This document shows, in pieces, positions 12,001 to 21,000 of a stretch of DNA of 64,000 bases. The stretch lies in assembly GCF_041886205.1 (NCBI RefSeq), contig NZ_CP169029.1; one strand, 5' to 3'. Position numbers: made by a program. This DNA is from Escherichia coli (GTDB lineage: Bacteria > Pseudomonadota > Gammaproteobacteria > Enterobacterales > Enterobacteriaceae). Position 1 is the stretch's first letter, and each line of letters begins with the position of its first letter.

Positions 12001-15000
12001 GCGCCCATCGGCATCATGCCACTATTGATTTCGCCTTTGATAGGACGTTATGGCAACAAAATTGACATGCGGGTGTTGGTGACATTTAGTTTTTTGATGT
12101 ATGCGGTTTGCTATTACTGGCGTTCTGTGACATTTATGCCAACGATTGATTTTACAGGTATCATTTTGCCGCAGTTTTTTCAGGGATTCGCCGTTGCCTG
12201 TTTCTTTTTACCCTTAACAACGATTTCGTTTTCAGGCTTGCCAGATAATAAATTTGCCAATGCCTCGAGTATGAGTAATTTTTTTCGTACCTTGTCAGGA
12301 TCAGTTGGTACGTCGTTGACAATGACGCTGTGGGGACGACGCGAATCGTTACACCATAGTCAGTTAACAGCAACCATCGATCAATTTAACCCCGTGTTTA
12401 ATTCATCGTCACAAATTATGGATAAATACTATGGTTCGCTTTCAGGAGTTCTTAATGAAATTAATAATGAAATAACCCAGCAGTCACTTTCTATTTCTGC
12501 AAATGAGATTTTCCGTATGGCGGCTATTGCTTTTATCTTACTTACGGTTTTGGTTTGGTTTGCGAAACCGCCGTTTACAGCGAAAGGCGTTGGGTGATGG
12601 TAAAAGGAGGGGGTTATAGCAGGTAAGACCGGGGATCTTAAGTCTGCGCCATTGGCAGCATCGCTCACCCAAGGAAAGGATGGCGATGCTGAATTGAAAA
12701 TTAATTAGTGGCCTTTTGCCAGATATTGCTCCATCTCTTCTTCCGGCACCATTCCACCTCCCGTCGCCCACACCAGATGAGTGGCATTATGCAGTTGTTC
12801 TGCGCTGAAACCGTGCATCTGTTGGTAACTTACTGATGCGCACACGCGCTGAGGCCCGGCCATACCCGCCAGTGCCGAAGGTTCAAGACGAATACCTTCT
12901 TCCTGCGCCAGCCAGCCAAGCATGTCATACATGGTTTGATCGCTAAGGGTATAGAAGCCATCCAGTAGACGCTCCATTGCCCGCCCGACAAAGCCTGATG
13001 CGCGACCAACTGCAAGGCCATCCGCTGCGGTAAGGTTGTCGATACCAATATCCTGAACAGAAATCTGATCGTGTAATCCTGTATGGACGCCTAACAGCAT
13101 ACAAGGGGAGTGCGTTGGTTCGGCAAAAAAGAAGTGAACATGATCGCCAAATGCCAGTTTAAGCCCGAATGCGACGCCACCAGGACCACCGCCAACACCA
13201 CACGGCAGATAGACAAACAGAGGGTTATCAGCATCGACAATACGACCTTGCTCGGCAAATTGCGCTTTAAGACGCTGGCCTGCGACGGAATACCCAAGGA
13301 ACAACGTGCGGGAATTCTCGTCATCAATAAAGAAACAGTTCGGGTCAGACTGCGCGGCTTTACGTCCTTCCTCGACGGCAACACCATAATCTTGCTCATA
13401 TTCCACGACCGTAACGCCATGGCTGCGCAGTTTTGCTTTTTTCCATGCCCGGGCATCAGCAGACATATGCACTGTCACCTTAAAGCCAATGCGGGCGCTC
13501 ATAATGCCGATTGATAACCCCAGATTTCCGGTTGAGCCCACAGCAATGCTGTATTGGCTAAAGAACTGTTTAAACTCCGGAGAAAGCAGTTTGCTGTAGT
13601 CATCTTCAAGCGTCAGCAACCCCGCTTCCAGAGCCAGTTTTTCTGCATGTGCCAGGACTTCATAAATCCCGCCGCGTGCTTTTATGGAGCCGGAAATAGG
13701 CAAATGGCTATCTTTTTTCAGTAGCAGTTGCCCGTTGATCGGTTGTTGATATTCCTTTTCCAACCGTTTTTGCATAGCCGGAATGGCAACCAGTTCTGAT
13801 TCAATAATCCCCCCAGTGGCAGCAGTTTCAGGAAATGCTTTTGCCAGATAGGGTGCAAAACGAGATAAGCGCGCATGGGCGTCCTGAACATCCTGTTCGG
13901 TCAGGCCAACATAAGGTAAACCTTCAGCCAATGAGGTCGTGCCAGGATTAAACCAGGTGGTTTCTTTAAGAGCAACCAGATCCTTTACCAACGGATACTG
14001 GGCGATGAGCGAGTTCATTTTAGCGTTTTCCATAGTACGTCTCTTTGCGCTTAGATGATAAATGACAGCAGGAATGTGCCCGCCAGAGCGACGACTGAAG
14101 CGATAAATGTCGCTGTCGTATAGTATTTAAATGTTTCATTGAGCGTAGCGCCGCAATATTGCTTCACCAGCCAGAAAAGCGAGTCCGTAACGATCGTGCA
14201 GCCAATCGCACCTGAACCGATAGCAATCGTAAAAATTTCCGGGCTGATGTCGGGATACAGCGGCAGCACAATGATCCATATTTATATTTTCTTCTCCAGA
14301 TTGGCGATGCCAGTTGGCATGTTTTACCTACTTGACTACATGGTTACTCGTTGGCGAGAACAGAGGCGGAATTGGGTACAATTGTCCGGGAATTATTGTT
14401 ATTTTTTATTGTATTGCCGTGTCGGGTGATAGGGCGTCGAGAATATCGTTGGATCTCGCCAGTGACGTCTGTTTCTGCTACAGTGCCCGTTTTACGGCAA
14501 ACGGCTTGGGTATGGCTTCATTAAAGGATGTCGCACGCCTGGCGGGAGTGTCGATGATGACAGTCTCCCGGGTGATGCATAATGCAGAATCTGTGCGTCC
14601 TGCAACGCGTAACCGCGTATTGCAGGCAATCCAGACCCTGAATTATGTTCCTGATCTTTCCGCCCGTAAGATGCGCGCTCAAGGACGTAAGCCGTCGACT
14701 CTCGCCGTGCTGGCGCAGGACACGGCCACCACTCCTTTCTCTGTTGATATTCTGCTTGCCATTGAGCAAACCGCCAGCGAGTTTGGCTGGAATAGTTTTT
14801 TAATCAATATTTTTTCTGAAGATGACGCTGCCCGCGCGGCACGTCAGCTGCTTGCCCACCGTCCGGATGGCATTATCTATACTACAATGGGGCTGCGACA
14901 TATCACGCTGCCTGAGCCTCTGTATGGTGAAAATATTGTATTGGCGAACTGTGTGGCGGATGACCCAGCGTTACCCAGTTATATCCCTGATGATTACACT

Positions 15001-18000: not shown

Positions 18001-21000
18001 GCTCAACGTTGCGGAGCGCTTGCAGTAACGGCGAAAGGGGCAATGACAGCGCTGCCATGTCGACAAGAACTGGAATAGTGAGAAGTAAACGGCGAAGTCG
18101 CTCTTATCTCTAAATAGGACGTGAATTTTTTAACGACAGGCAGGTAATTATGGCACTGAATATTCCATTCAGAAATGCGTACTATCGTTTTGCATCCAGT
18201 TACTCATTTCTCTTTTTTATTTCCTGGTCGCTGTGGTGGTCGTTATACGCTATTTGGCTGAAAGGACATCTAGGGTTGACAGGGACGGAATTAGGTACAC
18301 TTTATTCGGTCAACCAGTTTACCAGCATTCTATTTATGATGTTCTACGGCATCGTTCAGGATAAACTCGGTCTGAAGAAACCGCTCATCTGGTGTATGAG
18401 TTTCATCCTGGTCTTGACCGGACCGTTTATGATTTACGTTTATGAACCGTTACTGCAAAGCAATTTTTCTGTAGGTCTAATTCTGGGGGCGCTCTTTTTT
18501 GGCCTGGGGTATCTGGCGGGATGCGGTTTGCTTGACAGCTTCACCGAAAAAATGGCGCGAAATTTTCATTTCGAATATGGAACAGCGCGCGCCTGGGGAT
18601 CTTTTGGCTATGCTATTGGCGCGTTCTTTGCCGGCATATTTTTTAGTATCAGTCCCCATATCAACTTCTGGTTGGTCTCGCTATTTGGCGCTGTATTTAT
18701 GATGATCAACATGTGTTTTAAAGATAAGGATCACCAGTGCGTAGCGGCGGATGCGGGAGGGGTAAAAAAAGAGGATTTTATCGCAGTTTTCAAGGATCGA
18801 AACTTCTGGGTTTTCGTCATATTTATTGTGGGGACGTGGTCTTTCTATAACATTTTTGATCAACAACTTTTTCCTGTCTTTTATGCAGGTTTATTCGAAT
18901 CACACGATGTAGGAACGCGCCTGTATGGTTATCTCAACTCATTCCAGGTGGTACTCGAAGCGCTATGCATGGCGATTATTCCTTTCTTTGTGAATCGGGT
19001 AGGGCCAAAAAATGCATTACTTATCGGTGTTGTGATTATGGCGTTGCGTATCCTTTCCTGCGCGCTGTTCGTTAACCCCTGGATTATTTCATTAGTGAAG
19101 CTGTTACATGCCATTGAGGTTCCACTTTGTGTCATATCCGTCTTCAAATACAGCGTGGCAAACTTTGATAAGCGCCTGTCGTCGACGATCTTTCTGATTG
19201 GTTTTCAAATTGCCAGTTCGCTTGGGATTGTGCTGCTTTCAACGCCGACTGGGATACTCTTTGACCACGCAGGCTACCAGACAGTTTTCTTCGCAATTTC
19301 GGGTATTGTCTGCCTGATGTTGCTATTTGGCATTTTCTTCCTGAGTAAAAAACGCGAGCAAATAGTTATGGAAACGCCTGTACCTTCAGCAATATAGACG
19401 TAAACTTTTCCGGTTGTTGTCGATATCTCCCTATCCCTCAACCGGAAAATAATAATACTAAAGTGCTTAGCCCTGCTAATAATCACCTAATCCAAACGCC
19501 TCATTCATGTTCTGGTACAGTCGCTCAAATGTACTTCAGATGCGCGGTTCGCTGATTTCCAGGACATTGTCGTCATTCAGCGACCTGTCCCGTGTATCAC
19601 GGTCCTGCGAATTCATCAAGGAATGCATTGCGGAGTGAAGTATCGAGTCACGCCATATTTCGCTATCAGGATTCTGTGTGATGGTTACATCGCCCGGCCC
19701 AGGGCTGTTTAGTCATCAGCGCTTTCTGACAGTGCTGAGATTTCAACCTGTTGCAGTAAAAATGAGTAGATATAAGGCAAGTGTGCTGCCAAACCCATCT
19801 TTTACGGGGTGAAGGTAGATTTCGTATGAAGGGTATTCGCTATTTCACTGAAGCCTGTTCCGTTCTTCCATAGTTCAAAAACAGAGGCTTTTTCCTCTGC
19901 TGTAAATGTTCGTCTCATTCAAAAAACCTCTGCAACCCCATGTTTTCACATAACTGTTGCGTTGACCAATTGAATCTACAACGGCTTTTTTTAATATGTC
20001 CCGTTCGTCGGTAACCCGCTTCAGCTCTTTCTGGAGACGGCGGATCTCGGCCTGAGCATCTGACTGTTCTTTATTAGTGGAAGAATCCGGACCGTACTTC
20101 TTTATCCAGGAGTAAAGGCTGTGGGTGGTGATATCGAGACGTGTTGCAACGCTGGCAACAGAATAACCGCGATCAACAACCTGTTTGACTGCTTCAATTT
20201 TAAACTCTTCGGGATAACGCTTACCGCTCATGGGCACCTCTCTTTAAGTCATCTTAAATGACTCTGAGGTGTCTATTAAACCTGTGGCGATTCATTCGTC
20301 TTGTTTATCAGGTTATTGATGATATGTTAATTATTGCGGTAGTCGCAGTAGGTAAACGTGAACGTAGCAACGTTTATCATCTCGCTAGTGAGCGGATGAA
20401 ATAATATCCCTGTCAGCACTCTTTTTTATCTGCTGCCGTTTTTTCCGGTGATTTTTTTCTGCATGCAGAAAAAAGCCTGCCCGGAGGGCAGGCATGAAAG
20501 ACAATCGCACAGTTAGTGTTGAAATTAATGATATCACGCATTATACCCGGTGGATACACAAACCATCCCATGTAAATGCACTGGCATCCTAATCTACGTC
20601 TGATAACAACTGCAATGGCTGGACCTGTGATTTAAGAGAAAGTTATTATGTTTATTGAATATAACCGAAGTGATAAATAAAAGTATTATCACCTGTAATA
20701 TTTATGCTTATTGCGTGGTTTTATCTGGTTATATAAAGCACAGATGTTCTCATTATTTTCTGAAAAATAACCATATGGATCGATTTCCCCCACCCAGCCG
20801 AAGCGGTTCGGCTCGTTCGGCGTGTCGTCGACACTGAAGCGCTTATCCACTTCGTTCCAGCGGTAAGAGTCGTCGCTGTCGCTGACGAATGCCATCGGGT
20901 CGCTAAACAGCGTGATCCGCCATGCGATCAAAAAGCGTAAGTGTTTCCGACAGACGAGCCGGTGAAAAAAGTGGTGTGTCTGGCAATACAGGCATCGTCC

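Follow-up and report, generated by a model that had tools for sequence, protein, structure and literature searches.

Within one Escherichia coli contig (NZ_CP169029.1), genes for sucrose catabolism occupy the place that dsdC and most of dsdX hold in K-12, next to a full-length dsdA. The locus raises the question of whether this exchange is private to the strain or an allele already known in the species, and of what it would mean for the use of sucrose and D-serine. Our analysis covered a 64-kb stretch of the contig (referred to here as the window), in which positions 14269 to 19836 almost certainly correspond to the 5.57-kb csc block that is standard in E. coli and encodes the non-PTS chromosomal sucrose regulon, in its usual slot between argW and dsdA. 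The csc-for-dsdCX exchange is an already known, ordinary allele and implies no new biology, since about half of the complete E. coli genomes share both the arrangement and the junction. A first-pass annotation of the window had described cscR, cscA, cscK and cscB as replacing dsdC and most of dsdX, and the ORF map and family models bear this out, each element falling at the position given there. It had also called the exchange a recognised polymorphism, in agreement with published reports (PMC7486766, PMC4366372, PMC3032704, PMC11251922). The dsd remnants and the csc genes lie as follows.

12705-14033, minus strand: dsdA, D-serine ammonia-lyase, 442 aa, intact (TIGR02035).
14051-14269, minus strand: dsdX' remnant, the last 72 codons (residues 374-445), 219 nt (DsdX equivalog NF007395).
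14268/14269: left junction between chromosomal dsdX and the csc block (alignment).
14270-14511: region upstream of cscR (divergent from dsdX'-dsdA), conserved in both 6EVA and O157.
14512-15507, plus strand: cscR, LacI-family sucrose repressor, 331 aa, intact (full-length LacI-family model matches).
15515-16948, minus strand: cscA, GH32 sucrose hydrolase (invertase), 477 aa, intact (TIGR01322).
17164-18078, plus strand: cscK, fructokinase, 304 aa, intact (equivalog NF006957).
18150-19397, plus strand: cscB, sucrose:H+ symporter of the LacY-like MFS type, 415 aa, intact (TIGR00882).

This layout, with cscA convergent to cscR (7 bp separate their stop codons) and cscK-cscB divergent from cscA, is the same in W, O157, 6EVA, PT62 and E24377A. 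Compared with the K-12-type allele, everything from the argW 3' end up to and including nt 1117 of dsdX, with dsdC in between, has been replaced, and no K-12 sequence was found between 14269 and 29736 of the window. The annotated start of cscR is the ATG at 14512, whereas the mechanical ORF opens with a TTG at 14314, and the reference-length 477-aa CscA starts at 16948 rather than at 16957.

Alignment to reference proteins revealed no inactivating mutation in any csc ORF, the kind of lesion that the first-pass annotation had named as evidence against its reading. Against O157:H7 Z866 and against W, a strain that utilises sucrose, the Csc proteins show 0 to 7 residue differences. CscA scored 480 bits with TIGR01322 (cut-off 356), matched the sucrose-6-phosphate hydrolase structure PDB 7vco with an E value of 2e-172, differs from W at one residue and contains WMNDPNG, RDP and EC stretches, which we take to be the GH32 catalytic motifs. 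CscK, identical to WP_001274878.1, reached 505.7 bits with NF006957 (cut-off 450) over profile positions 2 to 302 of 302. CscB (TIGR00882, 594 bits) aligned to residues 9 to 401 of LacY structures (E 1e-63), with identical residues at the equivalents of LacY Arg144, Arg302, His322 and Glu325; it is the protein WP_001197016.1, found unchanged in O157:H7 Z866 and 6EVA. CscK and CscB each differ from W at two residues. CscR is identical to WP_001491232.1 of 6EVA and to the protein of PT62, and the gene of wlxctx60 is named "sucrose operon repressor CscR" by PGAP. It shows three amino acid differences from O157 and four from W, the latter at N34, P136, D234 and S238 (residues of the window). We considered, and set aside, the idea that the D34N change disables DNA binding, as the same protein is present in 6EVA and PT62. 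Position 34 is naturally variable in the helix-turn-helix domains of LacI-family proteins.

The dsd side is equally clear. As the first-pass annotation had it, dsdA is intact, with 442 codons, no internal stop and a TIGR02035 score of 809 bits (cut-off 368); the protein is 98.4% identical to K-12 DsdA over 441 aa, identical to WP_000426413.1 of 6EVA, and contains the stretch SGSIKARGG, presumably the PLP-lysine motif. Since pN/pS between csc-type strains is 0.03 to 0.43 for the csc genes and 0.08 to 0.13 for dsdA, none of these genes looks, at the level of sequence, like a decaying pseudogene. Ahead of dsdA stands only the 72-aa C-terminal piece of dsdX, also as annotated (NF007395 positions 374 to 445 of 445, E 1e-41). 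Its GTG "start" at 14269 is a product of the junction, K-12 homology stopping at 14268, and RefSeq lists it as a pseudogene, "incomplete, missing N-terminus", in 6EVA, O157:H7 Z866, W, PT62 and E24377A. Neither dsdC nor the 5' part of dsdX was found anywhere in the 64-kb window by tblastn and blastn. The annotated absence of dsdC, for which an intact copy elsewhere together with failure to grow on sucrose would have been contrary evidence, is also seen in close relatives: a chimeric csc+dsdC probe found one place in each of the 40 nearest complete csc-type chromosomes, with no dsdC in any of them, and no place on any plasmid.

The left junction (…CAGCGGCAGCAC followed directly by AATGATCCATATTT…) has the same position and sequence in the window, 6EVA, O157:H7 Z866 and W. 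The junction alignment that the first-pass annotation had proposed thus gave a base-for-base match between dsdX' and csc in both the O157:H7 and W types. Furthermore, a 201-nt probe centred on this junction was covered in full in 2661 of 5426 complete E. coli genomes, and non-csc examples among the matches listed align only over its first 99 nt at most, on the dsdX side. Because the identical junction is present in about half of the complete genomes, a single ancestral csc event, followed by spread through descent and homologous recombination, would explain the allele, and not a new insertion in this strain. That csc was inserted into dsdX recently and independently in this lineage, by way of a novel junction or mobile element, is scarcely credible: the argW neighbourhood is indeed a hotspot of both recombination and integration, IS elements as well as an island lie close by, and the DUF4942 fragment of the block resembles the kind annotated in argW-side island regions here, but a base-identical left junction spanning 2661 genomes refutes this reading. 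Nor does any transposase, inverted repeat or target duplication bracket 14269 to 19836. Carriage of csc by a transposon was rejected as a candidate in its own right, as no flanking repeats, transposase or target duplication surround the block. The right end, which falls at the argW 3' end or its att core in every strain compared, also speaks against an independent insertion. The features beyond cscB are as follows.

19398-19836: distal 439 bp of the csc block, with a DUF4942 gene fragment (about 19476-19658, minus strand) (alignment).
19837-19980, minus strand: IS30 fragment, internal-to-terminal, joined directly to the csc block (IS30 match).
29737-29811, minus strand: tRNA-Arg(CCU) argW, the integration hotspot bounding the variable region (ARAGORN, Rfam).

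The distal 439 bp are 98 to 100% identical to 6EVA, wlxctx60, O157, W, PT62 and E24377A, and the alignment always stops at 19836. In PT62 and E24377A the distal end adjoins the 3' end of the tRNA argW directly, and in W and O157 it adjoins a copy of the argW att core (TGGTGTCCCCTGCAG in W). The block of the window abuts neither; it stops one base short at 19836, the att core is missing, and the IS30 fragment, with its terminal inverted repeat at 19961 to 19980, stands there instead. This csc/IS30 junction (19836/19837) is strain-specific, being found in none of the 5426 complete genomes. Position 19836 was rejected as the true end of the block, as other genomes share about 15 bases more (the argW att core) and the window is broken there. 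The att core was lost through a secondary deletion beside the allele, which does not make the allele itself a different one. The argW gene itself, the sole match of the Rfam scan, is identical to that of K-12.

Comparison with known systems places the locus further. The csc regulon of EC3132 and W (Bockmann 1992; Jahreis 2002; Archer 2011, PMC3032704) matches the window in its four genes, their order and their orientation, and W shares the 219-nt dsdX remnant and the junction. W differs in a 12-bp deletion upstream of cscR and in a lambdoid prophage at argW, with the att core next to its csc block, whereas the window has a different argW island without att core. The truncated dsd locus of EHEC O157:H7 (EDL933 type; Moritz and Welch 2006, PMC4366372, PMC7486766) shows the same junction, orphan dsdA and csc arrangement. 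O157:H7 Z866 is 98.5% identical to the window in DNA across 9.2 kb, with CscB 100% identical, 3 to 7 amino acid differences in CscR, CscA and CscK and 4 in DsdA, and has a different island beyond the att core. The dsdCXA genes of K-12 and UPEC are the alternative allele at the same site; the flanks (argW-yfdC and the dsdX 3' end-dsdA-emrY) are shared with 97.8% identity, and K-12 has dsdC and a full-length dsdX, its interval of about 2.37 kb from the argW att copy (pawZ) to dsdX nt 1117 corresponding to the 5.57-kb csc block of the window.

The control sites between cscA and cscK are the following.

16983-16994: CscR operator 1, perfect palindrome GTTAACGTTAAC (sequence search).
17028-17043: CRP-like site TGCGA-N6-TCACA between the operators (direct reading).
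17047-17058: CscR operator 2, perfect palindrome GTTAACGTTAAC (sequence search).

Exactly two copies of GTTAACGTTAAC are present in the 64-kb window, both in the cscA-cscK intergenic region, against 0.12 expected by chance, and W has the same two 12-bp operators. They match the two 12-bp inverted repeats between cscA and cscK described in PMC11251922, which cites Jahreis 2002. A conserved Crp site has been reported in the same region (PMC11251922), for which bases 17028 to 17043 are a candidate. Position 17034, in the spacer of this CRP-like site, is A in the window and G in 6EVA, O157 and W, a private SNP. A consensus promoter scan returned 2 sites against 9 expected from shuffles, none of them at the expected csc or dsdA promoters, and no sigma-70 consensus match was found in the cscR upstream region (14270 to 14511).

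The working of csc is established in EC3132 and W and, judging from near-identity, would apply here as well. CscB would bring in sucrose with a proton, CscA would split it into glucose and fructose, and CscK would phosphorylate the released fructose. CscR, bound to the two operators in the divergent region, would repress both the cscA and the cscKB units until sucrose is present, with cAMP-CRP as co-activator. The predicted phenotype, drawn from published studies of strains carrying this allele, is slow growth on sucrose that depends on its concentration, failure to grow on D-serine, and sensitivity to D-serine. The first-pass annotation had called the strain sucrose-positive. Sucrose use is indeed predicted, although the term is too strong: no csc+ scr- isolate was a fast grower on sucrose, and of 29 such isolates growth was slow or very slow in 23 and absent in 5 (PMC11251922). 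The scr regulon (the PTS sucrose pathway, scrKYABR) shares with csc its substrate, a LacI-family repressor and a GH32 hydrolase, but it imports sucrose through the PTS EIIScr and the ScrY porin, lies at another locus and supports fast growth (PMC11251922). The 64-kb window showed no scr genes, and none would be expected at the csc site.

Intact csc ORFs are no guarantee of function, because the five isolates that failed on sucrose had apparently intact loci. The strain could thus be Suc- through tight CscR repression or a subtle regulatory defect, which we regard as unlikely though worth weighing. Four of the five nongrowing isolates had no obvious lesion (PMC11251922), W is efficient on sucrose only above about 1% according to PMC3938415, and the private G-to-A change falls within the CRP-like site. 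On the other hand, that change sits in a spacer that is not contacted, neither operator deviates from a perfect palindrome, and all four full-length proteins are close to those of W and O157:H7.

For D-serine, dsdA is structurally intact, yet it has lost DsdC, the LysR activator, along with the dsdX promoter that depends on it and the transporter DsdX. In the published case dsdA is silent and can be reactivated through the cscA promoter (PMC7486766); here, too, it is predicted to be silent but open to re-activation by deletions that fuse it to the promoter of cscA, which lies on the same strand. W is unable to use D-serine (PMC3032704), and wild-type EDL933 is D-serine sensitive (PMC7486766). 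It is improbable that the strain has kept D-serine catabolism, either because it carries a second dsdCXA copy, as K1/B2 strains do, or because dsdA is expressed independently of DsdC, from an internal promoter in dsdX' or by read-through from the cscA promoter. A second copy is suggested by the few strains that carry both loci (PMC11251922) and by the up to three places found for a dsdX-end probe in some genomes, but the 40 nearest chromosomes have no dsdC. As for expression, the 236 bp retained upstream of dsdA take in the promoter reported 115 bp upstream (PMC7486766), and no consensus intrinsic terminator was found between cscA and dsdA, which point the same way; however, wild-type EDL933 fragments from the cscA promoter to dsdA gave only a low reporter signal (PMC7486766). 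The low pN/pS of an intact dsdA would fit a gene in use, but recombination with dsdCXA+ lineages can account for this signal of purifying selection, since the dsdA DNA of W is 100% identical to that of K-12. We likewise hold it very doubtful that csc-type E. coli in general keep the orphan dsdA functional by way of the sucrose-induced cscA promoter or an internal dsdX' promoter; if they did, sucrose would turn on D-serine detoxification without DsdC.

By this allele the strain belongs to that half of the species which is of the csc type. The first-pass annotation had taken it to mark the strain background; the allele is present, but it is a weak marker because about 49% of complete genomes carry it. 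In published surveys (PMC11251922), phylogroups B1, D and E typically have the csc type, and ECOR group A and F strains lack it. The locus thus matters as routine annotation only, for the predicted slow, sucrose-inducible use of sucrose, lack of D-serine catabolism and growth inhibition by D-serine. In pathogenic E. coli such traits have been tied to a preference for the intestinal over the urinary niche (PMC4366372, PMC7486766). As a separate observation, emrK of the window carries an IS903-like insertion, which is strain-specific.

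The csc-dsdA region carries the following features, as laid out from an ORF map of window positions 11-23 kb and from NCBIfam scans.

11059-12597, + strand: emrY, from the ORF map
12705-14033, - strand: dsdA, 442 aa, 809 bits on the D-serine ammonia-lyase equivalog TIGR02035 (cut-off 368)
14051-14269, - strand: dsdX', an ORF of 72 codons whose match to the DsdX model (445 positions, E 1e-41) is confined to positions 374-445
14512-15507, + strand: cscR, a 331-aa LacI-family protein
15515-16948, - strand: cscA, a 477-aa GH32 enzyme, 480 bits on TIGR01322
17164-18078, + strand: cscK, 304 aa, 505.7 bits on the fructokinase equivalog NF006957 (cut-off 450)
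18150-19397, + strand: cscB, 415 aa, 594 bits on TIGR00882, a model for oligosaccharide MFS transporters

The first-pass annotation had reported the csc genes beside an intact dsdA and a dsdX fragment, and this observation is correct at these coordinates, since the matches are full length with very low E-values and do not reflect chance resemblance. CscA aligns with a solved sucrose-6-phosphate hydrolase (E 2e-172), and its translation contains WMNDPNG, RDP and EC stretches, which we take to be the GH32 catalytic motifs. Solved LacY structures align to CscB over its entire length (E 1e-63), and the structure alignment showed that the equivalents of LacY Arg144, Arg302, His322 and Glu325 are kept. 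Inactivating mutations in the csc ORFs, which would have spoken against the annotation, were not seen: aligned with 6EVA, E. coli W and O157:H7 Z866, the window CscR, CscA, CscK, CscB and DsdA contain no stops and every protein is full length.

Homology to K-12 MG1655 runs from emrK to dsdA and ends at position 14268, within dsdX codon 374, being picked up again only at argW-yfdC (29736-31000). The GTG start of the 72-aa dsdX' ORF is a product of this left junction. Searches of the 64-kb window with K-12 DsdC, DsdX and DsdA (tblastn) matched DsdX 374-445 and DsdA only, and neither these nor blastn with the K-12 pawZ-dsdC-dsdX 5' segment found dsdC or the 5' part of dsdX there; therefore, the window lacks dsdC as well as nt 1-1117 of dsdX, and the claim that the csc genes sit in the dsdCX position without dsdC holds. 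An intact dsdC elsewhere was also considered, using a chimeric probe of 1.5 kb of the window junction and cscR joined to K-12 dsdC. In each of the 40 chromosomes that matched best, among them those of 6EVA and wlxctx60 at 100% identity, this probe had one place, and plasmids gave none. Since each of these chromosomes offers a single place, the nearest complete genomes lack dsdC anywhere, an answer that covers the 64-kb window and these 40 best-matching relatives.

The same arrangement was found in the loci used for comparison, those of the nearest relatives 6EVA and wlxctx60 and of O157:H7 Z866, E. coli W, PT62 and E24377A, all six of which share the order dsdA, 219-nt dsdX pseudogene, cscR, cscA, cscK and cscB. 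The alignment with W-type and O157:H7 csc loci proposed in the first-pass annotation gave an identical junction sequence, …CAGCGGCAGCAC/AATGATCCATATTT…, in the window, 6EVA, O157:H7 and W. The window Csc and DsdA proteins are all identical to those of 6EVA and differ from the reference strains at few residues.

Amino acid differences between the window proteins and those of two reference csc strains
CscA: 1 from W, 7 from O157:H7 Z866
CscK: 2 from W, 3 from O157:H7 Z866
CscB: 2 from W, 0 from O157:H7 Z866
CscR: 4 from W, 3 from O157:H7 Z866
DsdA: 8 from W, 4 from O157:H7 Z866

Unlike the window, 6EVA and O157:H7, E. coli W has 12 bp deleted upstream of cscR (23195-23426 of the W locus, L005; window 14406-14417).

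At the population scale, 2661 out of 5426 complete E. coli genomes covered the full length of a 201-nt probe centred on the left junction, so that the csc allele with this exact junction occurs in about 49% of complete genomes. Among the matches listed, non-csc genomes matched over the first 99 nt or less, which is the dsdX half; a 7.8-kb probe recovered 2645 genomes. Because the breakpoint is always the same throughout the csc-allele genomes, the data point to a single ancestral event followed by spread via descent and recombination. Descriptions of the dsdCX/csc polymorphism go back to the 1970s (cited in PMC4366372), and the exchange is a textbook polymorphism that has since been studied in detail. 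Its description as recognised rather than novel is upheld by both the shared breakpoint and the published accounts, and the earlier finding is real, rightly located and rightly interpreted.

The roles of the four csc genes were established in EC3132 and W, and near-identity suggests the same roles here. CscB would act as a sucrose/H+ symporter, CscA would hydrolyse sucrose and CscK would phosphorylate the fructose, with cscA and cscKB expected to be repressed by CscR and under CRP control. The "sucrose-positive" phenotype first predicted needs tempering, given that fast growth on sucrose was seen in none of the csc+ scr- isolates, slow or very slow growth in 23 of 29 and no growth in 5 (PMC11251922). 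Regarding D-serine, published work on strains with the same allele describes a dsd system that is non-functional for lack of DsdC, with D-serine being toxic, and its utilisation is lost in W (PMC3032704). In such strains dsdA is a silent gene, and deletions creating a fusion with the cscA promoter can turn it on (PMC7486766). The genes have the same layout in the window: cscA and dsdA on the minus strand, cscR antisense between them. Among csc-type strains, pairwise pN/pS ranged from 0.03 to 0.43 in the csc genes and from 0.08 to 0.13 in dsdA, and none of these genes looks like a decaying pseudogene. The dsdA DNA of W is identical to that of K-12, which indicates recombination across allele types; thus, the dsdA signal does not prove that the gene is functional in csc-type strains.

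Between cscA and cscK, the palindrome GTTAACGTTAAC occurs in two perfect copies (16983-16994 and 17047-17058), the only two in the 64-kb window against 0.12 expected by chance. PMC11251922 puts forward two 12-bp inverted repeats as CscR operators, to which this pair corresponds. A CRP-like site, TGCGA-N6-TCACA, lies between the copies at 17028-17043, and its spacer holds a private G-to-A change at 17034 (G in 6EVA, O157:H7 Z866 and W), one of only three sites at which the window and 6EVA differ over 9.2 kb. At the sequence level, nothing suggests a regulatory defect in this region.

At the right end, tRNA argW directly follows 439 bp 3' of cscB in PT62 and E24377A. In W and O157:H7, what comes after this point is instead a second argW 3' end (TGGTGTCCCCTGCAG), equivalent to pawZ of K-12, and beyond it a prophage or island. 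The csc block thus extends between the argW 3' end and dsdX nt 1117 and puts 5.57 kb in place of some 2.37 kb present in the K-12-type allele; its 439-bp tail contains a DUF4942 gene fragment. In the window, the block instead joins the interior of an IS30 copy at 19836/19837 without an att core; beyond the last ~144 bp of IS30 (19837-19980, terminal repeat 19961-19980) come an IS911-type orfA fragment and then the remaining argW island, with a 1165-aa autotransporter, an IS3 copy and an integrase adjoining argW. Compared with wlxctx60 (L003 2038-7637), the window lacks 5.6 kb containing the argW att-core copy, an integrase fragment, yeeU/T/S-type genes, an antirestriction gene and most of IS30, and the ends share only TAT microhomology. 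The csc/IS30 junction was found in no complete E. coli genome searched and stems either from a deletion private to this strain or from an assembly join; the csc genes are untouched by it.

The autotransporter of this island (21265-24762, - strand) is of AIDA-I type, scoring 325 bits on the beta-barrel domain model TIGR01414 without reaching the cut-off for any named adhesin family, and has fragments of IS and toxin-antitoxin genes on its flanks. Coverage of 80% or more of window 19300-31000 was found in only 6 complete genomes.

Upstream of emrY, emrK is split by a 1057-bp IS5-family, IS903-like element (insert 9558-10614; window 9549-10623) with a transposase ORF at 9590-10558 (357 bits on NF033579), terminal inverted repeats GGCTTTGTTGAATAAATC… and a target duplication of 9 bp, ACCGGCACG. 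6EVA, otherwise 99.97-99.99% identical, lacks the insertion, and the source strain probably has an inactive EmrKY efflux adaptor. The annotation of 6EVA treats the yfc fimbrial usher and chaperone as pseudogenes with frameshifts (20949-24356 of its locus, L008, against window 41763-44703); at this position the window has a 725-aa and a 247-aa ORF, and its usher may also be truncated.
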